A stretch of 64,000 nt of DNA from an uncultured Acidobacteriia bacterium (GCA_903876865.1 CAIRBY010000700.1:6-64005); one strand, 5' to 3'. Positions 12,082 through 51,497 are shown, numbered from the stretch's first letter. A program made the numbers and translations. Notes: generated by a model from the letters alone, not told the origin.

Positions 12082-12083
12082 CC

Positions 12084-16034: not shown

Positions 16035-16041
16035 GGCCGGT

Positions 16042-18880: not shown

Positions 18881-18911
18881 GGGCTCCCGTGTGTTCTCAT
18901 CTGTTTTGAAG

Positions 18912-25362: not shown

Positions 25363-25376
25363 CGCAACCGATTGCA
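25363..25376. promoter_or_regulatory. LacI/PurR-type operator
   Basis: CGCAACCGATTGCA. Identical to the site at 51406 and to the reverse complement of the site at 34229. Confidence 0.65.
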
Positions 25377-31959: not shown

Positions 31960-31973
31960 TGCAATCGATTGCG
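31960..31973. promoter_or_regulatory. LacI/PurR-type operator
   Basis: TGCAATCGATTGCG with a perfect 12-bp palindromic core. Lies between the divergent Mop-like and lacI genes. Confidence 0.7.
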
Positions 31974-33060: not shown

Positions 33061-34065
33061 TTAGCTGAAGCGCTCCCGGAGCAGTGGTAATACCTTCTCC
33101 GAGTACAACTTCAGAAAGCGCGGCTGATCCGGGCCGGGCGCATGGAAAACCAAGTGGTTGAAGCCTAGCTCGATGTATGGCCGGACAGCTTCCACCTGCT
33201 CCTCCGGATCCGACGAAACGATCCAGCGCTTGGCGGTTCGTTCGATGGGCAGGGCATCGGCCAGACGTTCCATCTCGAGCGCATCCTCCGTATTCATCTT
33301 CTCTTCCGGGGTCAGCGCGAGAGCGCCCCAAAAACGGGTGTCTTCCAAGGCGCGGCCGCGGTCGGTATCGAAAGAAACTTTCATTTCGATCATACGGTCG
33401 ATCGATTCGGGCGCGCGGCCCGCTTTGGCAAGTCCCGCGGCAACATTGGGCAGCAGGGTTTCCCGGTAGAGTTCCGGATTCTTGCCACTGGTACAGATAA
33501 ACCCGGCAGCCTGTTCGCCCGCCATCTTCGAAACGACCGGTCCGGCGGCCGCGATGTAGATGGGAACGGCTTCGGCCGGTTTGTCGTAGATCGTTGCGTT
33601 CTCAGTTTTGTAATACTGCCCGCGGAAAGAGACGCGATCCTCCGCCCAGAGTTGCTTGATGAGAGCAATCGATTCCCGGAAACGCGCCGTACGCTCCTTG
33701 GGTTCCGGCCATTCCATCCCCGAAGAGGGTGTTTCATTCAAGGATTCGCCGGTGCCAATTCCCAGAATCACGCGGCCGGGAAACATCGTGCCGAGCGTTC
33801 CGAAAGCTTGGGCCACGATCGAAGGATGGTAGCGGAAGGTCGGCGTCAAGACGCTGGTTCCCATCACGATGCGGCTGGTGCTCGCGCCGAGCGCGCCAAG
33901 CCAGGCGAGAGAGAAGGGAGCGTGCCCCCCTGTGTGACGCCACGGCTGGAAATGGTCACTGATGAATACGGAATCGAAACCACACTGCTCCGCGTATTTG
34001 GAAAAGTCGATCAGGTCCGTTGGACTAAACTGCTCCGCCGATGCTTTGTAGCCGATTTTGAGCAC
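33061..34065 (-). CDS. fgd: F420-dependent glucose-6-phosphate dehydrogenase family oxidoreductase (LLM class)
   Basis: Collinear over its full length with mycobacterial Fgd1 as I recall it (KIGYKASAEQF...SDHFQPWRH.GGHAPFSL.W...GTSVLTPTFRY.P...AQAF...IYIAA.GP...KRWIV.SDP...NHLVFHAPG.DQ.RFL). GTG start at 34065 with AGGAG 5 nt upstream. Confidence 0.85.
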   Translation of the reverse strand: MLKIGYKASAEQFSPTDLIDFSKYAEQCGFDSVFISDHFQPWRHTGGHAPFSLAWLGALGASTSRIVMGTSVLTPTFRYHPSIVAQAFGTLGTMFPGRVILGIGTGESLNETPSSGMEWPEPKERTARFRESIALIKQLWAEDRVSFRGQYYKTENATIYDKPAEAVPIYIAAAGPVVSKMAGEQAAGFICTSGKNPELYRETLLPNVAAGLAKAGRAPESIDRMIEMKVSFDTDRGRALEDTRFWGALALTPEEKMNTEDALEMERLADALPIERTAKRWIVSSDPEEQVEAVRPYIELGFNHLVFHAPGPDQPRFLKLYSEKVLPLLRERFS

Positions 34066-34078
34066 GATTTCTCCTGAT

Positions 34079-34092
34079 TGGAACCGATTGCA
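34079..34092. promoter_or_regulatory. LacI/PurR-type operator
   Basis: TGGAACCGATTGCA, immediately 5' of the fgd SD. Confidence 0.6.
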
Positions 34093-34252: not shown

Positions 34253-34888
34253 CTATCTGGCAGCCGTCTGCTCACGTAGGAGTTTCCCGATGGGCGAGTT
34301 CGGATCCCGTTGCAGAAGTTCCGCCACGTCCTCGGGCGTGTCGATATCGAACAGAATGCCGGGCGGACGCATCACTTTCAGGGGAACGCCGCGGGATTCC
34401 GCCTGCTCGCAGTGCGCACGGAAACTGCCTGGCCCGAAACAAGCCTGTGTGGAATCCGGCGGACAGCGGACCAGACCATTGGTGCCGGTTCCGTCTCCGG
34501 AAGGGACCACAATCAAGCCATGGCGCGCGTGTTCGATCAGGCTCTCAATTTCGGCCGCGGTCACGAGCGGCACATCGATCGGGAGCAGAATGACCGCGGT
34601 CGCGCCCAGCTCCATGGCGCGCTTCGCCGCGAGATCGGCGGAATTACTGTGACTGACCTGCTGCTCCTCGTCGAACACGGTGGCGCCGTGTTTCCGGGCG
34701 CGGTCCGCGATGTTCGGATCGCTCGTGGCAACCACTACGCGGTCGAGTCCGCGAACCGAGCATAACGTCCCGAGAACCTCTTCGAACATGGCGATTGCGA
34801 GCGTTTCCCGTTGGGCGGGAGACAGGAAACCGCTCAGCCGCTGCTTGGCGTTGCGCGGCGATTTGACCGGGAGCAGAGCGAAAATCAT
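34253..34888 (-). CDS. cofC: 2-phospho-L-lactate/phosphoenolpyruvate guanylyltransferase
   Basis: Start re-chosen at MIFALLPVKSPRNAKQRL. MobA-like NTP-transferase fold with the typical CofC/FbiD blocks (LPVK....K.RL, ...LLPIDVPL..., DIDTPEDV). Confidence 0.8.
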   Translation of the reverse strand: MIFALLPVKSPRNAKQRLSGFLSPAQRETLAIAMFEEVLGTLCSVRGLDRVVVATSDPNIADRARKHGATVFDEEQQVSHSNSADLAAKRAMELGATAVILLPIDVPLVTAAEIESLIEHARHGLIVVPSGDGTGTNGLVRCPPDSTQACFGPGSFRAHCEQAESRGVPLKVMRPPGILFDIDTPEDVAELLQRDPNSPIGKLLREQTAAR

Positions 34889-34961
34889 GGGATCAGGTCC
34901 TTCAGAGGCATTGTAGTCGAAACCCGCGCTTCGCTGCCGGGTCTCCCCGGAGGGGCGCGTA

Positions 34962-34975
34962 AGGAAACGGTTGCA
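34962..34975. promoter_or_regulatory. LacI/PurR-type operator (weaker copy)
   Basis: AGGAAACGGTTGCA, about 75 nt upstream of cofC. Confidence 0.4.
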
Positions 34976-35112
34976 TAGGATAGACCCGGGTAGCGAGAGG
35001 CCTCCGTTTCGATGCGCCCAAATGCGCGCGAGCCTTGCTATTGTAATGTCAAATGAGCATCTCCGCGGTTCCGTATTTTCCTGTTGACAGGATGGGTCTT
35101 GGCAAGATACCA

Positions 35113-35126
35113 TGCAATCGATTGCA
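35113..35126. promoter_or_regulatory. LacI/PurR-type operator (perfect palindrome)
   Basis: TGCAATCGATTGCA is a perfect 14-bp palindrome. It lies between divergent cofC and the hydrolase-cox operon. Confidence 0.75.
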
Positions 35127-35226
35127 CGGTTGAAGCTGGATCGTGTAGTCGTCTGGCCCCAGATCGTTGCCTGGCTGTCGGCAACGCGATCCTGGCAGCT
35201 CATAAACGGCAAGGAGCCCCCTTCAG

Positions 35227-36138
35227 TTGCGACAAGAAGCGGTGAATTTCTTCAGCGAAGGTTCGAGAGTTTGTGGCCTTCTGCGCCTTCCGGATCAGGG
35301 CGACGGCCCCTTCCCTGGCATCGTCCAGGGTCCGGGATGGCTCGGTCTGCACGACGCCAAACTCTACGAGCGGTATCACAAGAGCTTCACCGACGCTGGC
35401 TACGCCGTGCTCGTCTTCGACTATCGCGGTTTTGGCGGCAGCGAAGGCGAAAAGGGCCTGCTCCTGCCGATGCGCCAGGCCGAAGACATCCGCAATGCCA
35501 TCACCTATATGCAGACCCGGGCCGAAGTGGACCCGAACCGCATCGGGTTGTTTGGCTCCGGCGGCACGGGTGGCGCCAATCCGATTTACGTGGCTGCGGT
35601 CGATCAGCGAGTGAAATGCGTGGTCAGCAATTACGCCTTTGCCAGCGGCAAGGCGTGGCTGCGGAGCATGCGGCGGGAATATGAGTGGCTGGAATTCCTC
35701 CGGCGCCTGGATGCCGACCGGAAAAAGCGGGTGCTCGAAGGCGCCGGCGAAATGGTCAGCCCGCGCGAAGAATTGATGGTAGTCACTCCGGAACGCAAGC
35801 AGACGACCGTGAAGAAGGATGTGGATACCCGTATACCCGAACTGGTACCGTTGCGCTGCGCCGATGCCATCATGGAGTTTGCTCCGGAAGACTGGGTAGC
35901 GCGCATCTCTCCCCGCGCCATCCTGTTCATATCCACGGAGAATGACGCCGTGACTCCGGAGGATCAGACCTTCCTGCTTTACGAAAAAGCCGGTGAGCCG
36001 AAGAAGTTGATTCTGCAGAAAGAGACTTCGCACTACCAGGCTTACGGAGATTATTTCGATCAGGTAACCCCACAGATCATCGATTGGTATGACCGGTATC
36101 TTCGTTATGAAAAAGTCGAATCCTGGGAAAAAGCATAG
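35227..36138 (+). CDS. alpha/beta hydrolase fold protein
   Basis: PGIVQGPGWLG...AGYAVLVFDYRGFGGSEGE resembles dienelactone-hydrolase/S15-like hydrolases. TTG start with AAGGAG 12 nt upstream. I could not find a clean GxSxG elbow. Confidence 0.65.
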   Translation: MRQEAVNFFSEGSRVCGLLRLPDQGDGPFPGIVQGPGWLGLHDAKLYERYHKSFTDAGYAVLVFDYRGFGGSEGEKGLLLPMRQAEDIRNAITYMQTRAEVDPNRIGLFGSGGTGGANPIYVAAVDQRVKCVVSNYAFASGKAWLRSMRREYEWLEFLRRLDADRKKRVLEGAGEMVSPREELMVVTPERKQTTVKKDVDTRIPELVPLRCADAIMEFAPEDWVARISPRAILFISTENDAVTPEDQTFLLYEKAGEPKKLILQKETSHYQAYGDYFDQVTPQIIDWYDRYLRYEKVESWEKA

Positions 36139-36159
36139 TGGGCGGGCGGCCAAAATCAC

Positions 36160-36627
36160 GTGTTGCTAAGCGTAACTGAGAATCTCGAACTGGCAACCGG
36201 TAGCGGGGACGCCTGGCAACTCCTGCGCGATACGGAGCGCCTGGCCCGTCTGGTCGGCGGTGTGCAAAGCGTGGAGCCGATCGAGTCGCCCGGCACGGAG
36301 GCTTACCGCGTAGTCGTCATGGAAAAAGTCGGTCCCTTCAAGGTGATCATGAACCTGGAAGTCGCCATTACCGAGACGGTGGAACTGCAAGTATTGGGTG
36401 CGACCATCAAGGGCAGTGAGCCCAAGGGCGGAAGCCGCGCGACCGGGACCGTGCGAGTCGAACTGACTCCGTCGCCCGCCGGAACCGCCATGCGCTTCAT
36501 CGTGAACGTCGAGATCCTCGGAAAGCTGGCCACTCTGGGCGCGCCCGTGATTCGCCGCCGCGTCAACGAACTGTTCAGCGACTTCGGCAAGCGGGTAGTG
36601 GCCGAGTTCGCGGTGGGTGCGGCATGA
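36160..36627 (+). CDS. CoxG-like SRPBCC protein
   Basis: Its size, position 5' of coxS and polyketide-cyclase-like sequence are typical of CoxG. Its stop overlaps the coxS start (ATGA). Confidence 0.7.
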   Translation: MLLSVTENLELATGSGDAWQLLRDTERLARLVGGVQSVEPIESPGTEAYRVVVMEKVGPFKVIMNLEVAITETVELQVLGATIKGSEPKGGSRATGTVRVELTPSPAGTAMRFIVNVEILGKLATLGAPVIRRRVNELFSDFGKRVVAEFAVGAA

Positions 36628-37097
36628 CCGTCGAGTTCCAGTTGAACGGCGAACCCGTCTCGGTCGCGATTGAGCCGCGTCATACGCTCGCCGAGGTATT
36701 GACCCGAAAACTGCGCCTCACCGGCACCAAAGTCTCCTGTGAAGCCGAAGTCTGTGGCGCCTGCACCGTGCTGGTCGATGGGCTCCCCGTGAGTTCCTGC
36801 ACCTATCTCGCCTACGAGGCGCGCGGCAAGAACGTCGTGACGATCGAAGGTCTGGAAGACAAGAACGGCAACCTGCACCCGCTGCAACAATCGTTCATCG
36901 ATGAGTTCGCATTTCAGTGCGGGTTCTGCACTTCCGGCATGATTCTCTCAGCGAAGGCGCTATTGGACGAAAATCCGAACCCGACCGACGCCGAGATCAT
37001 CGACCATCTGGACGGCAATATCTGCCGCTGTACCGGGTATCTGCCGATCCTGAAGGCAGTCCGGACGGCCGCCACCGCGATGGAGAATTACTCGTGA
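36624..37097 (+). CDS. (2Fe-2S)-binding small subunit of a xanthine-dehydrogenase-family enzyme (CoxS-like)
   Basis: Motifs: SCEAEVCGACTVLVDG, QCGFCTSGM, ICRCTGY. Confidence 0.92.
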   Translation: MTVEFQLNGEPVSVAIEPRHTLAEVLTRKLRLTGTKVSCEAEVCGACTVLVDGLPVSSCTYLAYEARGKNVVTIEGLEDKNGNLHPLQQSFIDEFAFQCGFCTSGMILSAKALLDENPNPTDAEIIDHLDGNICRCTGYLPILKAVRTAATAMENYS

Positions 37098-39364
37098 AGC
37101 GGCCCGGCGATTTCCGCATCGTCAATCATTCCGTGCCACGCGCCGACGGCGTCGCCAAGGTGACGGGGCGCGCCATGTATACCAGCGATATCGAACTCGA
37201 TGGGATGACCTGGGCCAAGGTGCTGCGCAGCCCTTTCGCACACGCTCGCATCGTCTCGATCGACACGGCGGCAGCACGGCAAAGTCCCGGTGTTCTCGAC
37301 GTGATTACAGGCACCGATCTGGCATCGCTCCGGCCCTATTACGGACACGCCGTGAAGGACCATCCCATTCTGGCGATCGACAAGGTCCGCTTCATCGGCG
37401 AGCCGGTGGCAGCGGTAGTCGCTGAAGACGATCTGTCAGCGGAAGAAGCGCTGCAATTGATCGAGGTCGAATACGAAGAACTTCCATCGGTCATGGAAGT
37501 GGATGCCTCGCTCGCCCCCGAGGCCCCCCTGATTCACGACGAGGCTTATACCGAGGGCGCCTTCCGCGGTTTCAAGGACGGACGTCAGGCATCGGGCAAC
37601 GTCTGCCAGTACGTGAAAGTGAAGTGGGGGGATGCCGCGGCGGCATTCGCATCCGCCGCGCACGTGGTCGAAAACGAATTCCATTTCCCCATGGCGTACG
37701 CCTACGCCATGGAAGCCTACGTCGCGATTGCCGATTATTCGAAGAAGGGACTGACCGTTTACTCCTCCGCGCAGCATCCCTTCATGGTGCGGCACGATCT
37801 CGCCGATATTTTCGACCTGCCGCTGAATGCTGTGCGCATGATCATCCCGTATGTCGGCGGCGGCTACGGCAGCAAGAGCTACACCAAGATCGAGCCGATC
37901 GCGGCAGTTTGTTCGTGGCGCACCGGACGTCCGGTCAAGTTGCGCTTGAGCATCGACGAGGCCTTTCTCACGACACGCGGGGACGATGCCCGGGTTCGCA
38001 TCCGCACCGCCTGCGACGCCGAGGGTAAATTCCTCGCGCGCCAGGCGACGATCCACCTGAACACCGGCGCGTACGCGGAAAACAGCCCGCTGGTCTGCGC
38101 CAAAGCCGCCAATCGCATCATCGGACCCTACCTGATTCCCAACGTCGATATCGATTGCTACGCGGTGTATACGAACACCGTGCCTGCCAGTTCCTATCGC
38201 GGCTTCGGATCGACGCAGGTCACATTCCCGGCGGAATCCCAGAACGAAGAACTCGCGGACCTGATCGGAGTCGACCCGTTCGAATTTCGCATGCGCAATC
38301 TGGCGCAACGCGGCGAAGTGATTTATCCGGGGCTCCGTCCAATCGACGCCGACGTTCCCGGCGACCTGCGGCAGATCGAGAGCAAATTCGAGGAATGGGG
38401 CGCGGTGCAGGAAGGACGCGGCCGCGCGGTCGGTTGTTCGGCAAGCGACGCGGGATCGCACCCGGTCACCTCGGCGATGATTCATGTGTATTCGGACGGC
38501 TCGGTTTCCGTGTTGAGCGGCGCCACTGAGATTGGCCAGGGAAGCCATACGGTCCTCGCCCAGATTGCGGCGGAAGAGATGGGCGTGCCCATGTCGAAAG
38601 TCCGCGTAGTGGGCGGAGACACGGCTATCACACCCTTTGAGCGCTCCACGGGCGCAAGCCGCACCACAACCCTGATGGGGCGCGCCGTGCTGGAGGCTTG
38701 CCGCGAAGCGATCGCGCAACTCATGAGCTTTGCCGCGGAGGCGCTCGGCGTTGCGCAATCCGCGCTGATCGAAGAGTGCGGCGGTGTGCGCCATGGCGAC
38801 ACGCAGTGGAGTTGGGGCGAAGTCATCGAGAAGCATTTCAAGCACAAGGACACCAGCATCATCGGAAGAGCTTACCTGCGGCAAACGGGCGACTTGAAAT
38901 TGATGCCTCCGTTTTGGGAGATCGGTGTCGTGGGGACTGAAATCTCGGTCGACCAAGAGACCGGAAAGATTCGCCTGGAGCGCCTGATGACGGTGGGGGA
39001 TGTCGGCTTGGCAATCAACCCGGCCGCTGCCGAGGGGCAGGATCTGGGCGCGGCGACCATGGGCATCGGAGTGGGCTTGTTCGAAGAACTGATTTACGAC
39101 GGGCAGCAATTGACGAACGGTTCCCTGCTGGAATACCGGGTACCGCGATTTTCCGATCTTGCGCCGGACATTCATATGACCCTGGCGCAGAATCAGGACG
39201 GCTCCGGACCGTATGGCGCCAAGGGCGGCGGGGAAGGTTCACTGAATCCGATTCCGGCCTGTCTGGCAAACGCGCTCTACCGTGCAACCGGCGCGCGTGT
39301 CCGGCGTTTGCCGCTTACCCCGGAACGAGTCTGGCGCGCTTTACAGGAAAGACCAAAAGTTTAG
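37094..39364 (+). CDS. molybdopterin-binding large subunit (CoxL/XdhB-like)
   Basis: Start re-chosen at the GTG at 37094, overlapping the coxS stop (GTGA). a/b-hammerhead N-terminus (ADGVAKVTGRAMYTSD). Further blocks: SSYRGFG, GGGEGSLNPIPACLANALY. Confidence 0.9.
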   Translation: MKRPGDFRIVNHSVPRADGVAKVTGRAMYTSDIELDGMTWAKVLRSPFAHARIVSIDTAAARQSPGVLDVITGTDLASLRPYYGHAVKDHPILAIDKVRFIGEPVAAVVAEDDLSAEEALQLIEVEYEELPSVMEVDASLAPEAPLIHDEAYTEGAFRGFKDGRQASGNVCQYVKVKWGDAAAAFASAAHVVENEFHFPMAYAYAMEAYVAIADYSKKGLTVYSSAQHPFMVRHDLADIFDLPLNAVRMIIPYVGGGYGSKSYTKIEPIAAVCSWRTGRPVKLRLSIDEAFLTTRGDDARVRIRTACDAEGKFLARQATIHLNTGAYAENSPLVCAKAANRIIGPYLIPNVDIDCYAVYTNTVPASSYRGFGSTQVTFPAESQNEELADLIGVDPFEFRMRNLAQRGEVIYPGLRPIDADVPGDLRQIESKFEEWGAVQEGRGRAVGCSASDAGSHPVTSAMIHVYSDGSVSVLSGATEIGQGSHTVLAQIAAEEMGVPMSKVRVVGGDTAITPFERSTGASRTTTLMGRAVLEACREAIAQLMSFAAEALGVAQSALIEECGGVRHGDTQWSWGEVIEKHFKHKDTSIIGRAYLRQTGDLKLMPPFWEIGVVGTEISVDQETGKIRLERLMTVGDVGLAINPAAAEGQDLGAATMGIGVGLFEELIYDGQQLTNGSLLEYRVPRFSDLAPDIHMTLAQNQDGSGPYGAKGGGEGSLNPIPACLANALYRATGARVRRLPLTPERVWRALQERPKV

Positions 39365-39400
39365 TTCGAATCTGATTCATAGCGAGAATGGAGGTTAAAC

Positions 39401-40822
39401 GTGGCTGTTGATCTATTGCTTAAAGGTGGCACCGTAGTAACGGAGGGTGGCCCGGTGCAGGCCGATGTGGCGGTTTCCGGCGGAGTCATCGTCGGATTAA
39501 CCGCGGCTGGAGAAGGACCGTCGGCGCGCCGCACGGTCGATGTGACCGGCCTGCATGTATTGCCGGGCGTCATCGATACGCACGCACACCATCGCGAACC
39601 GGGCTATACGCACAAGGAAGACATCATCACCGGAACTTCGGCGGCCGCGGCCGGCGGCGTGACCGTGAGTTGCGCCATGCCGAATGTGTATCCTCCCCCC
39701 AACACCGCAAAAGTGCTGCGCGATATGTTCGCGTTGTACGAACAGAAGTCGGTGATCGATTACAACATCAACGCCGCGTCCTCGAATCTGGAGGAACTGC
39801 CGGCGCTCGCCGAGATGGGGATCCTTTCGTTCAAGATCTTCATGGTGGTGGATACCGGCCGCGACTATCCGCACATGCCCGGAATCGGCGTGCACGATCA
39901 CGGCAAGCTCTTCAAGATGTTCCAGGGCATCCAGAAGACCGGCCTGCCGCTGATGATCCATCCTCACGATCAGGCTCTGATGACCGTGATTGAAGAGGAC
40001 TATTGGGCTCGCGGAGAGAAGGATTTCCGCGCCTATGCCAAGGCCTACAGTTCCTACGATGGCGTGATTTGGGATTCGGCCGTCTCCACTCTGCTGCAAC
40101 TGCAGCGCGCTTCCGGCGTACACCTCCACATTCTGCATCTGCAGACCCGGCGTTGTGTGGAGATGATCCGCGCCGCCCGCGCCGAGGGACGTGCGGTGAC
40201 CTCCGAAGTGAATCCGTGGACGCTTTGGCTGGGCAACGATTGTGCCAACATCGAGAGGCTCGCGTCCTACGCGCTCTCCTACTATGTGGAGCCTCATCAC
40301 TACCAGGCTGTATGGAACGCCTTGCTCGATGGCACGTCCGACATGATCGCCACCGACCACGCACCGCACACTCACGCTGAAAAAGCGCCGGGCCGCGAGA
40401 ACGGCTGGAAGGCCCATACCGGCACCCCGTCGGTGCAGGAGTATGTGTCGCTGCTGATGACGGACGTCAACGACGGCAAACTGAGCCTCAAGAAGGCGGT
40501 CGAACTGCTGTCCGAAAACCCGGCCAAAGTCTTCAAACTCTATCCGAAGAAGGGCGCCATCCGGATCGGCGCGGATGCCGATTTCGCGATCATCGATATG
40601 AACGCGGAACTGGTATTGAACGACGAGCGCGTCATCAGCAAATGCGGTTGGACGCCTTATGCCGGCCGCAAGGTGAAGGGTCTGCCGCTGCACACGATCG
40701 TGCGCGGAAAGTTCGTCTTTGAAGACGGTAAGGTAGTCGGGGAACCCGGTGGCGGCGTGAAGGCCACTCCGCTGACCGCCGAACAGGCGGCACGCCTCAC
40801 TGCCGCCGCGGTATCCGTCTAA
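39401..40822 (+). CDS. cyclic amidohydrolase (dihydroorotase/allantoinase subgroup)
   Basis: LPGVIDTHAHHREPGYTHKEDIITGTSAAAAGGVTVSCAMPN is the DHOase type I/allantoinase metal-binding signature. DHAPH lies later in the sequence. Confidence 0.85.
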   Translation: MAVDLLLKGGTVVTEGGPVQADVAVSGGVIVGLTAAGEGPSARRTVDVTGLHVLPGVIDTHAHHREPGYTHKEDIITGTSAAAAGGVTVSCAMPNVYPPPNTAKVLRDMFALYEQKSVIDYNINAASSNLEELPALAEMGILSFKIFMVVDTGRDYPHMPGIGVHDHGKLFKMFQGIQKTGLPLMIHPHDQALMTVIEEDYWARGEKDFRAYAKAYSSYDGVIWDSAVSTLLQLQRASGVHLHILHLQTRRCVEMIRAARAEGRAVTSEVNPWTLWLGNDCANIERLASYALSYYVEPHHYQAVWNALLDGTSDMIATDHAPHTHAEKAPGRENGWKAHTGTPSVQEYVSLLMTDVNDGKLSLKKAVELLSENPAKVFKLYPKKGAIRIGADADFAIIDMNAELVLNDERVISKCGWTPYAGRKVKGLPLHTIVRGKFVFEDGKVVGEPGGGVKATPLTAEQAARLTAAAVSV

Positions 40823-40858
40823 GTTCGACGATTCCACTACGAGAAAGAAGCCAAGACA

Positions 40859-41839
40859 ATGCCTACCGAATACGGTCTACTGGTCCCGCATTTTGGTCAA
40901 GATGCGAGCAAAGAGAAACTGCTGGAAGGAGCGGTCAAGGCCGAAGCTCTTGGCTTCGACTCGCTGTTTGTCCGCGATCACCTCGTCTTCCATCCGCATG
41001 GGATGGAGGGCACCGACAATACGTTTATCGACCCGTTCGTTGCCCTGACGGCAATGGGTACGGTGACGAAGAAGATCAAACTCGGCTTCGGGTCCCTGAT
41101 CCCCCACCGCCATCCGCTGCTGTGCGCGCTGATGGTCAACTCGCTGGAATACATGGTGGGCGACCGCCTGATTCTCTCCATGGGCCTGGGAAATTTCCAG
41201 GTCGAATTCGACGCGCTCGGCACCGGCGAATGGAAGCGCGACGAACTGGTGGAAGAGCAGGTGGCCATCATGCGCAACGCATGGAACAAGGACCACTTCA
41301 GCCACGAAGGACAGTACTACAAGATTGGCGAAGTGGGCTTCAAGCCGCGTCCCGCCAAAACCCCGGACATCTGGTATGCCGGCGGCACGCCCGCTTCCGT
41401 GCGGCGCGCCCTGGCGTACTGCGAAGGCTGGCTGCCCGGACGGATTACGCTCGACACCTACAAGAAACGGGTTCAGAAGCTGCGTGACGATGCACAGGCG
41501 TCGGGGCGGAGTCGCGTGCTGGAGGGCTGCATCCCGATCACCAGCATTGACGTGGACCGCGAAACCGCGCTCCGCAAAGTCAATGTAGATGGTCTGCTGG
41601 ACAACGCGAACAAACAGAAATTCTGGGTGAAGCCGGAGGCAGGGTCCTTCACGAAGTGGGAAGACCTGGAAGGTTCCTTCCTCGCCGGCAGCCCGGACGA
41701 CATCGTGCGCGAAGTGCAGAAATTCCTCGAAGTGGGAATCGATTTGATCGTATTCGATTTCCGCTTTCGCTTCGACGAATACGACCGTTCCATCGAGTTG
41801 CTCGGAAAAGAGGTTCTGCCGCGGCTTCGTAAACTATGA
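40859..41839 (+). CDS. luciferase-like monooxygenase (LLM) class oxidoreductase, possibly F420-dependent
   Basis: TIM-barrel LLM blocks (GFDSLFVRDHL, LGFGSLIP). Sequence alone cannot decide between FMN and F420 as cofactor. Its stop overlaps the coxM start (ATGA). Confidence 0.8.
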   Translation: MPTEYGLLVPHFGQDASKEKLLEGAVKAEALGFDSLFVRDHLVFHPHGMEGTDNTFIDPFVALTAMGTVTKKIKLGFGSLIPHRHPLLCALMVNSLEYMVGDRLILSMGLGNFQVEFDALGTGEWKRDELVEEQVAIMRNAWNKDHFSHEGQYYKIGEVGFKPRPAKTPDIWYAGGTPASVRRALAYCEGWLPGRITLDTYKKRVQKLRDDAQASGRSRVLEGCIPITSIDVDRETALRKVNVDGLLDNANKQKFWVKPEAGSFTKWEDLEGSFLAGSPDDIVREVQKFLEVGIDLIVFDFRFRFDEYDRSIELLGKEVLPRLRKL

Positions 41840-42702
41840 CGCCACTGAACCGGTTTGAAATCCACCAGCCCGCGACGATTACCGAAGCGTCGCGGATGCT
41901 GCTGGAGCATGGCGAGGAAGGCGGTTGCTACGCCGGCGGCACGGAATTGCTGCTGGCGTTGCGCCATCGCGCCCTGCAGTACCAGCATCTGGTGGATATC
42001 AAAGTCATCCCGGGGCTCAATTCGATTCAGGCGGCCAACGACTGGATCGACATCGGCGCCGCGTGTACCCACCGGGACATTGAGCGCTCCCCCCTGATCC
42101 GCGAGAAACTTCCGGTGGTGGCGGAGATGGAGTCGCACGTCGCCAATGTGCGGGTGCGAGCTTCCGGCACCATCGGCGGCAACCTGTGTTTCGCGGAACC
42201 GCATTCGGACCCGGCTACGTTACTGCTCGCATTGGAAGCCGTTGTGCGCACGGAAGGAGAGTCCGGCGCGCGCGAACTGCGCGTGGATGAACTGATTAAC
42301 GGAGCGTACTCCAATAGCCTGGAGCCCGGCGAGTTGCTCACCTCGATCCACATACCCGTGCTCCTTCCCGTGCAGCGCGCCGCGTACGTGAAGTATCAGA
42401 TTCGCGAGCGTCCGGCGCTCGGTCTGGCGGTGGTACTGGACACGCCCGACGGTGGCGCCACAATCAGCCAGGCGCGCATCGCCATCGGTTGCCTGTGCCC
42501 CTTTCCCCGCCGCTCCGCCGCGGCGGAAGAGATGCTTCGAGGTTCCAGAGAAGAAGTTGAAGCGCTCATCCCCCAAGCCGCCGAGGTGCTAGCCGACGAT
42601 GCGGAACTCATCGACGATAACGAAGGCGCAGCGGATTACAAACGCCACCTGCTAGGAGTATTCCTGCGCCGGGCGGTAGCGCGTGCTCTGGACGGCGCCT
42701 GA
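41836..42702 (+). CDS. FAD-binding medium subunit (CoxM/XdhA-like)
   Basis: Motifs: YAGGTELLLALR and SGTIGGNLCFAEPHSD. Confidence 0.85.
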   Translation: MTPLNRFEIHQPATITEASRMLLEHGEEGGCYAGGTELLLALRHRALQYQHLVDIKVIPGLNSIQAANDWIDIGAACTHRDIERSPLIREKLPVVAEMESHVANVRVRASGTIGGNLCFAEPHSDPATLLLALEAVVRTEGESGARELRVDELINGAYSNSLEPGELLTSIHIPVLLPVQRAAYVKYQIRERPALGLAVVLDTPDGGATISQARIAIGCLCPFPRRSAAAEEMLRGSREEVEALIPQAAEVLADDAELIDDNEGAADYKRHLLGVFLRRAVARALDGA

Positions 42703-42739
42703 TGGCGGCGCTTGCCACTACACCAATTCGGACGAAACT

Positions 42740-44011
42740 ATGTCTTCACAAGTCAATTTCGCAGCTTATATCAAGCCCGAAGAACTAGCCGAACTGGCGC
42801 TGAAGATGGCTAACACCTTCAGCCCGATGGGGCATGAACTGCCTCTGGCCGAAGTGGTTTGCGGCTGGCTGCAAGAGAATCGGCTGAACGCACATCTACA
42901 GCCGATTCTGAGCGACCGCGCCAACGTGGTTGCGGTGCTGCCCGGCGCGGGTGGCGGCAAGAGCCTGCTTTTCAATTCGCATCTCGATACGGAAATTTCA
43001 GGGCCGGAGTTCGATTGGGGAATGCAGGCTCCGGACCTCAATCGCATCGGCGCCTGGCGCGAAGGCAACAAGTTCTTCGGTCACACCATCCTCAATGACC
43101 GCGGCCTGATGGCCACCACGATGATCGCTTTGAAGGCGCTGCGCGATTCCGGCGTGACGATTCCCGGCGACGTCATCTTCACTGGCGTTGTAGGTGAAAC
43201 GGGTGCGGGTCCGGTGGATGAATATCAGGGCCTCACCTACGAAGGTAAAGGGTTCGGCAGCCGTCACCTCGTGTCGCATGGAGTCCGCGCCGATTATGCG
43301 CTGGTGGCCGAGACGACGGACTTCGGTATCTCCTGGCTCGCCTGCGGCGCGTGCTATCTCAAGGTGAAAGTGCCCGGCGTGAATCAGTACACGCCGCGTT
43401 CGCAGCGGCCGGACAATATCAGCGACCACCCCAACGCCATCGTGAAAATGGCGCACGTGATTCAGGCGATCGAAGCCTGGGCGCGCGACTACGAAACCCG
43501 GCACACGATTCAATCCCCCTGCGGGCGGGTGGTCCCCAAAGTCAATATCGGAGCGATTCGCGGCGGAGTGCCCTATCGCCCGAACCGCACTTCCACGCAC
43601 TGCGCGATCTATGTCGACGTGCGTATCCTACCCGGCGAAGATCCGCTCCGTATCCAGGCTGAATTGCAGCGTGCGGTCGATGCCGTGCAGGTGGGCGCCA
43701 AAGTCGAAACCTTTCTGGCTCGCACCGGAGCCGTGGGCACGGGGATCGAACCCCTGGCCGATGAGGTCACGAAGGCGTTCCGCAAGGTTACCGGACAGGA
43801 CCCCCTGCCCGAAGCGCCGCAGGAAGTGGTCAGCATGTGGCGGGACAACAACGTCTTCAACGAAGCGGGCATTTCCTCGCTCACGTTCGGTCCGCCGCGC
43901 CGCCGCGACCCGCAGACCAACCGGTTGTGTTTTGAACTCGACGATCTCGTCAACATGGCGAACGTCTACGCGGAAATCGCATACGCAATCTGCCAACAGG
44001 CGAAAGGTTAA
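42740..44011 (+). CDS. M20 family metallo-amidohydrolase (ArgE/DapE/AllC/carbamoylase type)
   Basis: Start re-chosen at MSSQVNF. LLFNSHLDTE (metal His/Asp), GVVGETG, and a dimerisation insert. Confidence 0.8.
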   Translation: MSSQVNFAAYIKPEELAELALKMANTFSPMGHELPLAEVVCGWLQENRLNAHLQPILSDRANVVAVLPGAGGGKSLLFNSHLDTEISGPEFDWGMQAPDLNRIGAWREGNKFFGHTILNDRGLMATTMIALKALRDSGVTIPGDVIFTGVVGETGAGPVDEYQGLTYEGKGFGSRHLVSHGVRADYALVAETTDFGISWLACGACYLKVKVPGVNQYTPRSQRPDNISDHPNAIVKMAHVIQAIEAWARDYETRHTIQSPCGRVVPKVNIGAIRGGVPYRPNRTSTHCAIYVDVRILPGEDPLRIQAELQRAVDAVQVGAKVETFLARTGAVGTGIEPLADEVTKAFRKVTGQDPLPEAPQEVVSMWRDNNVFNEAGISSLTFGPPRRRDPQTNRLCFELDDLVNMANVYAEIAYAICQQAKG

Positions 44012-44020
44012 GAGCCCCTT

Positions 44021-45463
44021 ATGAGCACCGTCACTCCCGCACCGGGAATCGAATCGGCCCCGCAACATCCTCCGCTAAAAGCTCTGATCGGAATGGTGCT
44101 GGGCCCGCTGCTGGCTCTCATCATCTGGTTCGCTCCGCTGGCGCTCGAGGCCAAGGCTAAGCATGCTTTGGCGATCGTGGCGCTGATGGTCATCTACTGG
44201 GCGCTCGAGCCGATCGATCACGGTCTGACGGCACTGCTGGGCTGCTACCTGTTCTGGGCGCTGGGAGTGACGAAGTTCGACACCGCCTTCGCCGGGTTCA
44301 CCGATAGCACACCCTGGTTCCTGTTCGGCGCCATGCTGATGGGTGAAGCGGCCTCGCGCTCCGGATTGGCCTCGCGCATCGGCTACATGGTGTTGGGCAT
44401 CGTCGGCACTTCCTATGCGCGCCTGTTGCTGAGCGTGATTCTGCTGGTCTTCGTGCTGAATTTCCTGGTGCCTTCCGGCATGGCGCAAGTCGCCATCATC
44501 GCACCGATGCTGATGGGCATGGTAGTGGCCTTCGGCGTGGAAAAGGGTAGCAACATCGGCCGCGGGATGTTCATCATCCTGACCTATACCTGCGGGCTCT
44601 TCAACAAGATGATACTGGCCGGCGGAGCCAGCATCCTCACTCGCGGGCTGGTGGAAAAACTTACCGGACACCCGATCTCATGGAGTTTGTACTTCATCGC
44701 GTACCTGCCCGCCACACTGCTCACCATCGTGGCCTGCTGGCTGACCATCCTGTGGCTCTATCCCCCAGAGAAAAAAGAACTCCCCGGCGGCCGCAAATAT
44801 CTAAAGGATTCGCTGGACGCCCTGGGTCCGTGGAAGACGGCCGAGAAGAAGGCGCTGGCATGGCTGGTATTGGCCATCGCGCTCTGGTCCACCGATGCGC
44901 TGCACGGAGTCAGTCCCGCGGTAATTGCGATGGGAATCGGGCTCGCCGTTTCGCTGCCGGCAATCGGAGTTTTGCGGACCAAGGATGTGCGGTCCATCAA
45001 CTTTCTGCTGATCATCTTCCTCGGCGGGGCTCTCAGTATGGGCGAGGTCCTGATCAAGACCAAGGCTCTCGACACCTTGACCGGGGTCATGATGTCGTGG
45101 ATGGAACCGATGCTCGCCAGCAACTTCTGGGCCGCCAGCGCGCTCTACTGGACCGGCTTCGTGTATCATTTCGCGCTGGCCAGCGAACTCTCGATGATCA
45201 GCACATCGCTCCCGGTTCTCATTAAGTACGCACAGAGCCACGGCTACAATCCAGTGGCTATCGCAATGCTTTGGAACTTCGCCTCCGGTGGCAAGTTGTT
45301 CGTGTATCAATCGTCGGTGCTGGTGCTCGGTTATTCGTTCGGCTACTTTGAGGGCCGCGACTTGCTCAAGGTCGGCGCGGTGCTCACGCTGATCGAAGGC
45401 CTGATCGTGATGTTCCTGGTGCCGATTTACTGGCCGATGATCGGCCTGAACTGGGGCTTATGA
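44021..45463 (+). CDS. DASS/SLC13-type anion transporter (paralogue of 27558-28997)
   Basis: 480 aa. Long identical runs with the paralogue, e.g. DSTPWFLFGAMLMGEAASRSGLA, LNFLVPSG, GSNIGRGMF, LWLYPPEK, GKLFVYQS. Confidence 0.85.
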   Translation: MSTVTPAPGIESAPQHPPLKALIGMVLGPLLALIIWFAPLALEAKAKHALAIVALMVIYWALEPIDHGLTALLGCYLFWALGVTKFDTAFAGFTDSTPWFLFGAMLMGEAASRSGLASRIGYMVLGIVGTSYARLLLSVILLVFVLNFLVPSGMAQVAIIAPMLMGMVVAFGVEKGSNIGRGMFIILTYTCGLFNKMILAGGASILTRGLVEKLTGHPISWSLYFIAYLPATLLTIVACWLTILWLYPPEKKELPGGRKYLKDSLDALGPWKTAEKKALAWLVLAIALWSTDALHGVSPAVIAMGIGLAVSLPAIGVLRTKDVRSINFLLIIFLGGALSMGEVLIKTKALDTLTGVMMSWMEPMLASNFWAASALYWTGFVYHFALASELSMISTSLPVLIKYAQSHGYNPVAIAMLWNFASGGKLFVYQSSVLVLGYSFGYFEGRDLLKVGAVLTLIEGLIVMFLVPIYWPMIGLNWGL

Positions 45464-45479
45464 TCGGCCTGCACTGGGG
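45438..45479 (+). repeat. 23-bp tandem duplication across the transporter stop codon
   Basis: TGATCGGCCTGAACTGGGG at 45438-45456 and TGATCGGCCTGCACTGGGG at 45461-45479. Period 23, one mismatch. Confidence 0.8.
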
Positions 45480-45482
45480 TCA

Positions 45483-46691
45483 ATGACCGCCGGCACATTC
45501 CGTGCGTTTCGCAACCGGAATTTCCGCTGGTTCTTCGCCGGCCAAGTCCTATCGGTTACCGGCACCTGGGCACAGCGCGTGGCGTTGGGCTGGCTGGCCT
45601 ACCGGCTGACCCATTCGTCGCTATTCCTTGGAATGGCGGCGTTCGCATCCAGCGCGCCGGCCTTCCTGCTCACACCGATCGCAGGCGTCATCGCCGATCG
45701 CGTGGACCGCCGGCAACTGCTGATTTGGGCGCAAGTATTCGGCCTGCTGCAGGCCGCGGGACTCGCAGGAGCGACCTTGACCGGCGTCATCACGCCCAAC
45801 TGGCTGCTGTTCTTCTCCCTGATCCTGGGGATCATCAACGCATTTGAGAACCCGGTGAGGCAATCGTTCTACACCGGGATGGTGGGGCCTGAAGACCTTT
45901 CCAATGCCATTGCGCTGAACTCATCGCTGGTGAATGCGGCGCGAGTGGTTGGTCCCGCTCTGGCCGGCGCGGTTGTGGCCGCTTGGGGCGAGGGCATCTG
46001 TTTCGTTCTGAACTCTCTCAGCTTTGTCGCCGTGATTTTCGCCCTGATGATGATGAAGGTGGATGCCCAGCTCCGGACTGCCGACCCTGCCGGCGGTTGG
46101 GAGTTGCTGCGCCAGGGCTTTGCCTTCATCCGTCAATCCCCAGTCCTGAGCGCCATGTTGCTGAACCTCGCGATTTTCAGCGTGGCGGGCAGTCCGTATC
46201 TCACGCTGCTGCCCGTACTGACTGTGGAACGCCTGAGTTCCGGGCCCGTGGGACTCGGCTGGCTGATCTCAGCTTCCGGAGCCGGCGCCATCGTCGCCTC
46301 CCTCGCGCTTGCGTCGAAACAATCGACCAGCGGCCTGCCCGCCGCTTCGTTCGCAGCGACCGCAGTCGCGGGTGTCGCTCTGGTGGTACTCGGTTTTTCC
46401 CGCAGCTTCGCACTCTCTCTGGTAATGTTGCTCCTGATCGGGGCGGGTTATGTCCTGATGCTGGCGGGCACCCAAACCATGATGCAGAGTCTGGCAAGCG
46501 AGAGCATGCGCGGGCGCGTCATGAGCTTCTACTCGCTGGTATTCCTCGGAGTCCCACCGCTCGGCAGCCTGGCCGCCGGCTTCGCGGCGGAGAGGCTGCA
46601 CGCCAGCATGACAGTCGCGCTCGGTGGCGGGCTATGCGCCCTGGCTGCTGTTGCCGTCGCGCGTCGCAGTTACGGCAGTACGGGCAACTGA
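45483..46691 (+). CDS. MFS transporter
   Basis: About 12 hydrophobic segments. The N-terminus FRNRNFRWFFAGQVLSVTGTW is typical of the MFS_3/EntS-like group. The 3' end overlaps the convergent cofH by 22 nt. Confidence 0.85.
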   Translation: MTAGTFRAFRNRNFRWFFAGQVLSVTGTWAQRVALGWLAYRLTHSSLFLGMAAFASSAPAFLLTPIAGVIADRVDRRQLLIWAQVFGLLQAAGLAGATLTGVITPNWLLFFSLILGIINAFENPVRQSFYTGMVGPEDLSNAIALNSSLVNAARVVGPALAGAVVAAWGEGICFVLNSLSFVAVIFALMMMKVDAQLRTADPAGGWELLRQGFAFIRQSPVLSAMLLNLAIFSVAGSPYLTLLPVLTVERLSSGPVGLGWLISASGAGAIVASLALASKQSTSGLPAASFAATAVAGVALVVLGFSRSFALSLVMLLLIGAGYVLMLAGTQTMMQSLASESMRGRVMSFYSLVFLGVPPLGSLAAGFAAERLHASMTVALGGGLCALAAVAVARRSYGSTGN

Positions 46692-47953
46692 TCTGAGATC
46701 TGCCTCGGCTTCTGGAAACGGAAGCCTTCGGAGGCGACCAACTCCCGGTAGGAACCGAAGTAATCGCGATCGGTATCCAGTGCATCCAGGGGTTCGGCCG
46801 GCACCGGTTCCTCAGCGAGAATCCGGCGCACGCGATAGGTCGTGTATCGCTCCACCGGAACTCTGCCGGCATCGCGCGCGGCGATGCGTAAATCCACTGG
46901 CCGCAGGAAATGCCCGTGGGACGCGCCTGCCGCGGTGGAAATGCTCTCGTTCATGAGCGTGCCGCCCAGATCGTCCGCACCGGCGCCCAGGCACTGCTTG
47001 GCCAGTTCGATGCCTTGTTTCACCCAACTCGCCTGAATGTGAGCGATATGCCCGTTCAACATGATGCGCGAGACGGCGTACATGCGCAGCACTTCGTCCT
47101 TCGTAGCGCCCTCGCGGATTCCCTGCACCAGTCCCTTGGTATACATGGGCGCTTCACTGTGAATGAAGCTGAGCGGCACGAACTCGGTGAAGCCGCCGGT
47201 TTCTTTCTGAATGTCGCGCAACAGCGCCAGATGCTCAGCGCAGTGGCGGGCGGTTTCGACGTGACCGTACATGATCGTCGAAGTGGTCGGGATCCCCAGT
47301 TGGTGCGCAGTAGAGATGATCTCCCGCCAGCGCGCGGTGGAAATGCGGCCCGGCGAAATCAGGTCGCGTACTTTATCGTTCAGAATTTCGGCTGATGTGC
47401 CAGGTAGCGAGCCAACGCCCGCTTCCTTCAAGGCGATCAGATATTCCTTCGGGCTACAGCCGGAACACTCGGCTCCGTACAAGACTTCCTCCGGAGAAAA
47501 GCCGTGGATATGGATCCCGGGGACCGCCGTTTTGATCGCGCGGCATAGTTCCACGTAGAGCGACCCTTGCATGCGCGGAGGCAGCCCCGCCTGCACGCAG
47601 ACTTCAGTCGCGCCCAGGTCCCACGCCTCTGTGGCGCGCCGCACTACTTCTTCCACGGGCAGGTAATAACCTTCTTCGGCGCGATGACCGCGGCTGAAGG
47701 CGCAGAAGCCGCAGCGCTTGACGCAGACGTTGGTGAAGTTGATATTGCGGTTGACCACATAGGTGACGCGGTCCCCATTGGCCCATTGCCGGAGTTGATC
47801 CGCGACACCGATCACCGCCCGTAAGTCCGCGCCCGCGGCGCTGAACAGCAACTCCCCTTCCGCAATACCGGTCTCCCCGCCGTCGAGACAACGGTCGAGA
47901 ATGGCAGCAATTGCGGGATCGCAGGCGTTCAGCAGCTTGTTCACGTTCAGCAT
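46670..47953 (-). CDS. cofH: FO synthase subunit 2 (radical SAM)
   Basis: Start re-chosen at MLNVNKLL. Radical SAM motif CVKRCGFCAF. Collinear CofH blocks. Confidence 0.9.
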   Translation of the reverse strand: MLNVNKLLNACDPAIAAILDRCLDGGETGIAEGELLFSAAGADLRAVIGVADQLRQWANGDRVTYVVNRNINFTNVCVKRCGFCAFSRGHRAEEGYYLPVEEVVRRATEAWDLGATEVCVQAGLPPRMQGSLYVELCRAIKTAVPGIHIHGFSPEEVLYGAECSGCSPKEYLIALKEAGVGSLPGTSAEILNDKVRDLISPGRISTARWREIISTAHQLGIPTTSTIMYGHVETARHCAEHLALLRDIQKETGGFTEFVPLSFIHSEAPMYTKGLVQGIREGATKDEVLRMYAVSRIMLNGHIAHIQASWVKQGIELAKQCLGAGADDLGGTLMNESISTAAGASHGHFLRPVDLRIAARDAGRVPVERYTTYRVRRILAEEPVPAEPLDALDTDRDYFGSYRELVASEGFRFQKPRQISDQLPVLP

Positions 47954-47964
47954 GGCTCCTCGAT

Positions 47965-50187: not shown

Positions 50188-50216
50188 TTCAGCCTTTGTG
50201 ATGCAGTTTGCTGCTT

Positions 50217-50247
50217 CCAGGAGGACAGCTTAATGCCATCCTCCTGG
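50217..50247 (-). terminator. 9-bp stem hairpin between the bicupin and hupE-like genes
   Basis: CCAGGAGGA-13 nt-TCCTCCTGG. No U-tract, so terminator function is uncertain. Confidence 0.3.
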
Positions 50248-50278
50248 AGTATAGCTGGGACAACTTGGTTACGGCGCC

Positions 50279-51391: not shown

Positions 51392-51405
51392 TGCACGATC
51401 TCCTT

Positions 51406-51419
51406 CGCAACCGATTGCA
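51406..51419. promoter_or_regulatory. LacI/PurR-type operator
   Basis: CGCAACCGATTGCA, directly 5' of the bicupin SD. Confidence 0.65.
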
Positions 51420-51497
51420 CTATTACAACCCATGCGAATAGGGAGTGTCAAGCGCTATAGCCCTAAATAATACCTAGAAAGCGGGGAATCCGGCTGG

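Follow-up and report, generated by a model that had tools for sequence, protein, structure and literature searches.

Actinobacteria that degrade picrate and dinitrophenol use F420H2-dependent hydride transferases of the luciferase-like (LLM) type together with the enzyme NpdG. The F420H2-dependent LLM hydride transferase Fht is listed in PMC8498797, and according to a 2021 review of F420 no F420-dependent enzyme had by then been studied outside Actinobacteria. In the reductive urate pathway, reduction of the ring is unfavourable and needs coupling to an amidohydrolase, and the genes for both steps co-localise (Li et al. 2025, PMC12507026). The same study predicted, from genome neighbourhoods only, an F420 reductase of the luciferase family in Chloroflexota urate clusters of the SsnA type. 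The locus described here joins an LLM oxidoreductase to a cyclic amidohydrolase (Amh), an alpha/beta-fold serine hydrolase (abH) and molybdenum (Mo) hydroxylases. It lies in a window of 64,000 nt from an uncultured Acidobacteriia bacterium (GCA_903876865.1 CAIRBY010000700.1:6-64005; positions count from its first letter) and occupies positions 35227-46691. On balance it is probable that this operon belongs to a LacI-repressed catabolic regulon for a carboxylated N-heterocycle, whose ring would be hydroxylated, then reduced, then hydrolysed, with F420 as the hydride carrier.

The reductive urate pathway of E. coli and C. difficile (XdhD/YgfM, YgfK or UacX, SsnA, HyuA, YgeW/UacY, YgeY, YgeX) resembles this gene set in combining an enzyme of the xanthine dehydrogenase (XDH) family, a ring reductase, an amidohydrolase pulling the reduction, and M20 or other hydrolases. 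Both also have an FeS-Mo fusion protein whose FAD subunit is separate. The differences lie in the proteins themselves, with 27% identity of Amh to HyuA, 26% of the fused Mo protein to XdhD and 22% of the M20 enzyme to YgeY. The cluster here also has one cyclic amidohydrolase, which is dihydroorotase (DHOase)-like, its F420 supply is co-regulated, and its hosts belong to aerobic soil phyla. Homologues of SsnA, YgfK, UacX, YgeW, YgeX and YgeY were found neither in the window nor in 88 related loci. The E. coli reductive urate cluster was considered as an identity for the locus and rejected, as comparison of its ygeW-to-xdhD proteins gave no orthologues. The logic of the present cluster is analogous to that of the predicted F420 urate variant, but it uses another amidohydrolase family, is co-regulated with F420 synthesis, and reaches into Acidobacteriota and Alphaproteobacteria. 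A first-pass annotation of this DNA had called the combination undescribed. This has to be restricted: the cluster itself differs from the SsnA type, but an F420-dependent LLM as ring reductase was already predicted in 2025 (PMC12507026).

All operon genes lie on the plus strand. The first encodes abH (35227-36138; Pfam Peptidase_S15/Hydrolase_4). It is followed by a CoxG-like SRPBCC protein (36160-36627; PF06240, E 1.5e-12) that is kept in Acidobacteriota loci, the [2Fe-2S] small subunit CoxS (36624-37097; Fer2_2 and Fer2 domains), and the molybdopterin large subunit CoxL of an XDH-family hydroxylase (37094-39364; three Mo-hydroxylase domains). Next come Amh (39401-40822), carrying metal ligands and DHOase motifs, the LLM oxidoreductase proposed as an F420H2-dependent ring reductase (40859-41839), and the FAD subunit CoxM of the Mo hydroxylase (41836-42702; FAD_binding_5 and CO_deh_flav_C domains, 288 aa). 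A NaaA-type M20 aminohydrolase (42740-44011; homologous to PDB entry 5k8m) and a DASS anion transporter (44021-45463; PF00939, E 3e-54) complete the nine genes recognised in the first-pass annotation, whose gene order was recovered by domain and family searches. Its placing of abH at the 5' end is also right, although abH falls just outside the start at 36160 given there. An MFS_3 transporter gene (45483-46691; PF05977, E 5e-63) starts 19 nt past the DASS gene and probably belongs to the operon as its tenth member; a homologue with 70% identity lies 3' of the DASS gene, on the same strand, in the sister locus L010.

At three junctions the genes overlap by 4 nt, with ATGA at CoxG/CoxS, GTGA at CoxS/CoxL and ATGA at LLM/CoxM. 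A fourth overlap had been claimed at CoxM/M20, and it exists, with 20 nt, only if the M20 gene starts at GTG 42683; the ATG at 42740, chosen by an independent gene call, leaves a gap of 37 nt. The remaining intergenic gaps measure 9-37 nt. These overlaps and short gaps support the earlier view of one tightly packed unit of catabolic type, and the spacing of the ten same-strand genes suggests that they are co-transcribed. The separation of the FAD subunit from the small and large subunits by two catabolic genes is likewise real and conserved, since Amh and LLM lie between CoxL and CoxM not only here but also in other Acidobacteriota loci and in L002 and L003. A search for riboswitches with Rfam gave no match for the window or for any of seven related loci.

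The family of this LLM comprises 964 database relatives and was found in 405 species-level GTDB genomes; the window proteins were compared with the related loci by tblastn. Genes for abH and Amh accompany the LLM almost everywhere; where the flank is long enough, hardly any locus lacks abH. Almost every Acidobacteriota locus and about eight of the Chloroflexota loci also carry the Mo hydroxylase. The M20 enzyme and the transporters vary among loci. Because abH and Amh travel with the LLM while the other genes vary, the conserved core is the trio of abH, Amh and LLM, to which Mo hydroxylases, M20 enzymes and transporters are lineage-specific additions.

The link to F420 was assessed at the level of the neighbourhood. 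Of the 52 loci of at least 15 kb, 14 have an Fgd orthologue or cof genes no more than 10 kb from the LLM (binomial p ~1e-12 against a background of 2%). In Alphaproteobacteria, a complete cofH-G-C-D-E-fgd array abuts iclR-abH-LLM divergently. A Pseudomonadota metagenome-assembled genome (MAG) carries the order Amh-fgd-cofE-cofC-cofG-cofH-abH-LLM on one strand with gaps below 250 nt (L020, 2282-10981), which appears to be a single operon uniting F420 synthesis with the trio. In Chloroflexota, fgd is often the last gene of the cluster. In L092 and L094, two Acidobacteriota loci with no fgd nearby, npdG/Fno is divergent from LacI-abH (TIGR01915, 222 bits against a cutoff of 150). With Fgd, Fno or cof genes beside the LLM in three phyla, the comparison of neighbourhoods made the connection to F420 stronger than the single sequence had shown.

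Within the window, a 14-bp LacI-type palindrome, TGCAAYCGRTTGCA, occurs in seven copies at up to one mismatch, where 0.10 would be expected, and every copy is intergenic. The perfect palindrome TGCAATCGATTGCA (35113-35126) stands upstream of both the operon and the divergent cofC gene, overlapped by a sigma-70-like promoter, TTGACA-18-TACCAT, on the plus strand (35084-35126), about 100 nt upstream of abH. Two copies, at 34079 and 34229, lie upstream of fgd (33061-34065, minus strand; TIGR03554, 475 bits against a cutoff of 420), as the first-pass annotation had it when it placed Fgd under the same operator as the LLM operon. Another (31960-31973) occupies the divergent gap between the gene of a LacI-family repressor (32019-33059, plus strand) and that of a second hydroxylase, a fused [2Fe-2S]-Mo enzyme of the XDH family (28994-31786, minus strand; TIGR03311, 689 bits against a cutoff of 830). 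The latter gene shares an ATGA overlap with that of a second DASS transporter (27558-28997, minus strand; TIGR00785, 170 bits), which is 62% identical to the operon DASS. The copy at 25363 precedes a TonB-dependent receptor (22044-25190) and an exported cupin protein (20658-21941), both on the minus strand. Copies at 51406 and 51498 lie upstream of an exported cupin-like gene, a HupE/UreJ-like membrane protein gene (49120-51451 for the pair, minus strand, between cofE and cofG), cofG and cofH.

The same arrangement recurs in related loci. A LacI gene is immediately 5' of abH in L011, L019, L021, L092, L093 and L094, and operator-like sites are found in L010, upstream of abH, and in L011, L019 and L021. 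In L011/L092 and L021, the operon itself includes the gene for the fused Mo enzyme. The operon of the Blastocatellia locus L093 encodes a cupin with 48% identity, and a TonB receptor with 53% identity is encoded a few genes downstream. On the grounds of these shared operator sites and sister-locus arrangements, the operon is predicted to be one arm of a larger LacI regulon whose other arms comprise a second hydroxylase and genes for uptake, F420H2 regeneration and F420 biosynthesis, with the repressor as the putative ligand of the palindrome. The recurrence of different F420H2-generating enzymes beside the cluster, together with the operator that it has in common with fgd, argues that the LLM consumes F420H2.

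The first-pass description of a neighbourhood rich in F420 biosynthesis genes is borne out, with CofC, CofH, CofG, CofE and CofD, like Fgd, each above its family cutoff. CofC (FbiD; 34253-35212, minus strand; TIGR03552, 137 bits against a cutoff of 105) is divergent from the operon promoter. In its open reading frame (ORF) the domain match starts only at residue 112, leaving about 110 residues ahead of it, and the start codon probably lies further in. CofH and CofG, which form FO synthase, are convergent with the operon end (46670-49116, minus strand; TIGR03551, 468 bits, and TIGR03550, 459 bits); the two ORFs overlap by 379 nt, and their start codons, too, are probably further in. CofE and CofD are encoded at 51562-53231 on the minus strand (TIGR01916, 233 bits, and TIGR01819, 322 bits). 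A flavin/deazaflavin oxidoreductase (FDOR) of the F420-dependent PPOX class (TIGR03618, Rv1155-type, 108 bits against a cutoff of 79) is encoded at 27028-27540 on the plus strand and faces the second DASS gene in convergent orientation. As the second predicted F420 user of the neighbourhood, it indicates that the genome has other users of the cofactor.

Several further genes were observed around the regulon. A type II-like asparaginase with a signal peptide is encoded in the interval that separates the second DASS gene from the TonB receptor gene (25380-26411, minus strand). A homologue with 48% identity (L029, 4292-5386) is part of an operon with genes, in this order, for an acyl-CoA dehydrogenase (ACAD), a CoA-transferase III, the asparaginase, a DASS transporter, Amh, LLM and abH. 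The enzyme may deamidate the substrate or an amide of the pathway. The HupE/UreJ-like protein and the exported cupin-like protein encoded between cofE and cofG could serve metal supply, and a HupE/UreJ gene is also found near the cluster in L002. An NMT1/THI5-type solute-binding protein is encoded at 11092-12345 (minus strand), and proteins of the same type flank the trio in L002, L007 and L008. Further away are a second LacI-family regulator (472-1524, plus strand), a third Mo-cofactor-binding protein with a truncated hammerhead domain (8634-10523, plus strand), and a cluster of BatA/BatB-like VWA proteins with a MoxR-type AAA ATPase (15018-19910, minus strand) that is apparently unrelated to the operon.

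The amidohydrolase gives the clearest indication of the substrate class. Amh carries all ligands of the binuclear metal site. It also has the motifs that set type I DHOases apart, HxH-x-REPG, AMPN and DHAPH, which show no variation among 64 orthologues drawn from several phyla and align with the Bacillus anthracis DHOase 3mpg. Allantoinase and hydantoinases differ from Amh at the REPG, AMPN and DHAPH positions. In DHOase structures, the Arg, Asn and His of these motifs bind the substrate carboxylate, and since Amh retains them, its substrate is likely to be a carboxylated ring. Overall identity is about 30% alike to L-hydantoinase, allantoinase, D-hydantoinase and dihydroorotase, and the protein stays below every curated NCBIfam cutoff. 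The DHOase models PRK09060 and TIGR00857 give 299.7 (cutoff 482) and 259.9 (cutoff 279.05), allantoinase models 268-272 (cutoffs 358-631), and the D-hydantoinase model 260 (cutoff 393). Assignment to AllB, PydB or HyuA, as envisaged in the first-pass annotation, is not supported by these scores, and the substrate motifs are those of dihydroorotase. Judging from the motifs, Amh could open the ring of dihydroorotate or of a carboxylated cyclic imide or ureide isosteric with it.

The M20 enzyme is a full-length homologue of 5-nitroanthranilate aminohydrolase NaaA (5k8m; E 5e-92, 41% identity over 409 aa) and is predicted by this homology to be a NaaA-type aminohydrolase. No AllC or PydC model was among its matches, which included merely weak ArgE/DapE-type hits of at most 92 bits, and the earlier suggestion of an AllC, PydC or carbamoylase type gives way to the NaaA assignment. 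The best PDB match of abH is the esterase-type structure 7qjm (E 2e-50), and its Ser111-Asp240-His269 triad is invariant in 65 orthologues. Its best NCBIfam match, a lactonase family, is weak (158 bits against a cutoff of 400).

The FeS, Mo and FAD modules are all present, as in Mo hydroxylases of the XDH/carbon monoxide dehydrogenase (CODH) family. CoxL keeps the Gln associated with Mo=O (SSAQHP) and the catalytic Glu (AKGGGEG), and the fused enzyme keeps the equivalent Glu and Gln. Where purine-type enzymes have a substrate-binding Glu (Glu802 in the bovine enzyme, Glu232 in that of R. capsulatus), CoxL has Ser and the fused enzyme Leu. With the purine-binding Glu replaced by Ser, the active-site check contradicts a purine-type XDH reading of CoxL. 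All XDH equivalog models stayed below cutoff for both proteins, and a motif check of the Mo enzymes did not find the CODH loop motifs AYxCSFR (form I) and AYRGAGR (form II). The beta subunit of 4-hydroxybenzoyl-CoA reductase is longer than ordinary FAD subunits owing to a [4Fe-4S] insertion. The closest PDB match of CoxL is the alpha subunit of this reductase (346 bits), but the identity was rejected on account of CoxM, which with 288 aa has the ordinary length of an FAD subunit (E. coli XdhB, 292 aa).

The best family model for the LLM is TIGR03619 (F420_Rv2161c), and the same model is best for relatives of other lineages from three phyla (149-157 bits). In a profile search of the PDB, the six best matches are all F420 enzymes, among them Mer (95 bits), fHMAD (90), Adf (87) and Fgd (86). 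A Foldseek search with the AlphaFold model (pLDDT 87.9) places Adf and FGD1 at the top by TM-score (0.80-0.82). Published motifs discriminating F420 from flavin mononucleotide (FMN) enzymes were not found in Mascotti 2018 or 2021. Riboflavin lyase RcaE was not among the PDB matches, and no follow-up aimed at RcaE was made. Sequence and structure lean to F420, and the strong evidence is the genomic context. The F420-linked LLM of the first-pass annotation keeps the backing of its context and best family model, but the scores below the TIGR03619 cutoff and the family-model and fold comparisons are not decisive.

A number of points weigh against an F420H2-driven catabolic pathway. With 149.4 bits, the LLM falls 17 bits short of the TIGR03619 cutoff of 166.9; FMN enzymes follow closely in the PDB profile search (81 and 79 bits), and by E-value the FMN-dependent SfnG leads the Foldseek list. 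The direction of the LLM reaction, as a consumer of F420H2, is deduced solely from its co-regulation with enzymes that generate F420H2. In most loci of Acidobacteriota and Chloroflexota no F420 gene lies within 10 kb, and the best 80 loci (Acidobacteriota, Alphaproteobacteria, Limnocylindria of the Chloroflexota and a few Actinomycetota) are all from MAGs. The NaaA reaction is an aromatic deamination with no obvious sequel to ring reduction, the roles given to abH and M20 in the pathway are guesses, and CoxG points to a Mo enzyme passing electrons to the membrane, which is uninformative on the substrate.

The position of SfnG and the score below the TIGR03619 cutoff would suit an LLM that acts, like RutA or PyrA, as a two-component monooxygenase with FMN and attacks the ring oxidatively, by cleavage or hydroxylation, with its flavin reductase encoded elsewhere and the F420 genes as chance neighbours or partners of another enzyme. 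The second NCBIfam match of the LLM, TIGR03571 (102 bits), is not labelled as F420-dependent, NaaA-like M20 enzymes are partnered elsewhere by RutA-like FMN LLMs, and the nearby FDOR could be the true F420 user. This alternative is nevertheless unlikely. No flavin reductase was found in the inspected clusters of the LLM family, the FDOR is not conserved in related loci, and genes of F420 regeneration or biosynthesis recur near the LLM in three phyla and in differing gene orders. With 326 aa, the LLM also matches Fgd, Adf and Mer, all F420 enzymes, in size. The window LLM gave no RutA match, and its family scores at most 50 bits (relative P0105, cutoff 498), against 260 bits for a plasmid LLM.

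RutA-type oxidative cleavage was examined through that plasmid LLM, which lies beside a NaaA-like M20 gene, matches RutA and has its own flavin reductase; the window LLM does not match, and this candidate was rejected. The plasmid cluster, found in Acinetobacter baumannii (L090, 7189-10822) and Paraburkholderia graminis (L091, 7213-10786), consists, in this order, of genes for an MFS transporter, the RutA-like LLM, an isochorismatase-type hydrolase, a NaaA-like M20 enzyme (35% identity) and a flavin reductase, and looks like an uncharacterised Rut-like module. The plasmid collection held no close relative of the window LLM and distant relatives only of its M20 enzyme.

A reaction in the opposite direction can also be considered, in which the LLM would be an F420-reducing dehydrogenase acting on a hemiaminal, an alcohol or a dihydro-ring, and abH a lactonase or lactamase for the product, as 6-phosphogluconolactonase follows Fgd. 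The dehydrogenases Fgd, Adf and fHMAD score about as high against the LLM as the reductase Mer, and abH-LLM is the most tightly conserved pair, occurring without Amh in several alphaproteobacterial loci. The lactonase family as best, if weak, match of abH would also agree with it. Co-regulation and co-location with the F420H2 producers Fgd and Fno, however, favour an F420H2 consumer, and a dehydrogenase would require an F420H2 oxidiser in the pathway, of which none is conserved. We therefore regard this direction as improbable.

In Alphaproteobacteria the abH-LLM pair abuts or lies within the cof cluster, which brings up a function of abH and LLM, perhaps with Amh, in the biosynthesis, maturation or turnover of F420, for example as dehydro-F420-0 reductase. 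CofE of the window is a single-domain protein of 244 aa without the C-terminal reductase domain of FbiB, organisms with such a CofE need stand-alone reductases, and no nitroreductase-type FbiE was present among the window ORFs scanned against Pfam or NCBIfam. The known stand-alone reductase, however, has the nitroreductase fold. In Acidobacteriota and Chloroflexota, moreover, the LLM stands among Mo-hydroxylase subunits, Amh, M20 and transporters, often with no cof gene within 10 kb, and repressor control and transporters are typical of catabolism. A maturation role thus appears very unlikely.

In the preferred catabolic reading, the substrate would cross the outer membrane via the TonB-dependent receptor and then be taken up by the DASS and MFS transporters. 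CoxG/S/L/M and the fused FeS-Mo protein would place oxo groups adjacent to the ring nitrogen, giving lactam or imide carbonyls, and the LLM would move a hydride from F420H2 onto a ring C=C. F420H2 could be regenerated by the co-regulated Fgd, or by NADPH:F420 reductase in sister genomes, with F420 itself supplied by the cof genes under the shared operator. The DHOase-like Amh would open the dihydroorotate-like cyclic imide or ureide and probably draw the reduction forward. The constant adjacency of Amh and LLM fits a ring reduction coupled to an amidohydrolase, as in the reductive urate pathway. Finally, abH, through its Ser-Asp-His triad, and the NaaA-type M20 enzyme might free the remaining amide, carbamoyl or amino nitrogen, possibly with the nearby asparaginase.

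The acidobacterial gene set would best fit a pyridine-carboxylate that is oxidised to the 2,6-dioxo form, reduced, converted by opening into a half-amide, and deamidated. A pyridine-carboxylate is preferred over orotate or a purine because of the two Mo enzymes, the two DASS transporters, the carboxylate site of Amh, the asparaginase at 25380-26411, and the in-operon asparaginase of L029 beside ACAD and CoA-transferase. For the bare trio, conversion of orotate to dihydroorotate and on to carbamoyl-aspartate is the simplest candidate. Of the purine- or pyrimidine-like substrates put forward in the first-pass annotation, purines fit less well, and a carboxylated pyridine or pyrimidine better.

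Routes for related substrates show comparable sequences of steps. Mycobacterium sp. INA1 degrades isonicotinate with two Mo dehydrogenases, ring reduction, imide hydrolysis and amide hydrolysis, and shares with the present locus the use of two successive Mo enzymes. The fermentation of orotate by Clostridium oroticum proceeds through orotate reductase, dihydroorotase and ureidosuccinase. Like the Pyd pathway, it reduces C5=C6, opens the ring with an enzyme of the DHOase/dihydropyrimidinase type and removes the carbamoyl group, and Amh has the carboxylate triad of DHOase. The locus differs from both in its LLM, which would take the place of PydA or dihydroorotate dehydrogenase, and its Mo hydroxylases, NaaA-type M20 enzyme and asparaginase are left unexplained by an orotate route. 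A literature text search returned nothing relevant on catabolic gene clusters for orotate or isonicotinate/citrazinate.

Nicotinate is degraded in Eubacterium barkeri and Azorhizobium with 6-hydroxynicotinate reductase and enamidase, and in Aspergillus nidulans with HxnS, HxnT, HxnM and HxnN, in each case by hydroxylation, saturation, an imidase and an amidase (PMC9304392). These routes resemble the one proposed here in Mo-dependent hydroxylation beside the nitrogen, ring reduction, hydrolytic C-N opening and amide hydrolysis. They differ in having a ferredoxin-, old yellow enzyme-type or NADPH-dependent reductase instead of an LLM with presumed F420H2, and an enamidase or PuuE-type imidase instead of a DHOase-like opener; no enzymes are orthologous.

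The actinobacterial picrate and dinitrophenol system shares with the proposed pathway an LLM-fold enzyme that adds a hydride to an electron-poor ring and an F420-reducing enzyme encoded alongside, as with npdG in L092 and L094. LLM subfamily, substrate class and downstream enzymes differ, and the hosts here are non-actinobacterial. In the catabolism of lumichrome by Nocardioides simplex (LumH/I/M, LumK/L, LumJ), which includes a hydroxylation of the xanthine-oxidase type, the uracil ring is hydrolysed, urea is removed and an ortho-amino carboxylate is deaminated hydrolytically (PMC12746152). Two features of the present loci recall this pathway: NaaA, with which the M20 enzyme shares 41% identity, carries out a deamination of this type, and a thiamine pyrophosphate (TPP) enzyme recurs in Chloroflexota and Blastocatellia loci. 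The Lum pathway has no reductive step, and the cluster here contains no Rieske or catechol dioxygenase genes. The TPP enzyme, similar to benzoylformate decarboxylase and acetolactate synthase, is encoded beside the cluster in Blastocatellia, Terriglobia and Chloroflexota (L093, 12029-13927; L007, 10972-12666; L092, 1-127). L007 also carries a P450 with ferredoxin, an Amidohydro_2 protein and a cupin resembling gentisate/5-aminosalicylate dioxygenase.

The trio is tied physically and by regulation to F420 supply genes in three phyla, which gives concrete proteins and a short list of substrates. A bolder proposal, doubtful at present, is that F420 production in some Alphaproteobacteria, Acidobacteriota and Chloroflexota has its chief physiological purpose in the trio. 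The cof genes, Fgd or Fno and the trio would then form a mobile island for a hitherto undescribed reductive pathway dependent on F420H2, the substrate would be a common carboxylated azine (such as orotate or a dihydroxypyridine-carboxylate), and the LLM would be the first F420-dependent ring reductase of the (dihydro)orotate type. Should the LLM be FMN-dependent, the locus would still represent an uncharacterised N-heterocycle pathway, though a more routine one. If the proposed function is true, the LLM would be a new ring-reducing biocatalyst, and a function would be assigned to a large unannotated dihydroorotase-like family and to NaaA-like M20 enzymes. It would also mean a catabolic role for F420 in abundant soil phyla.

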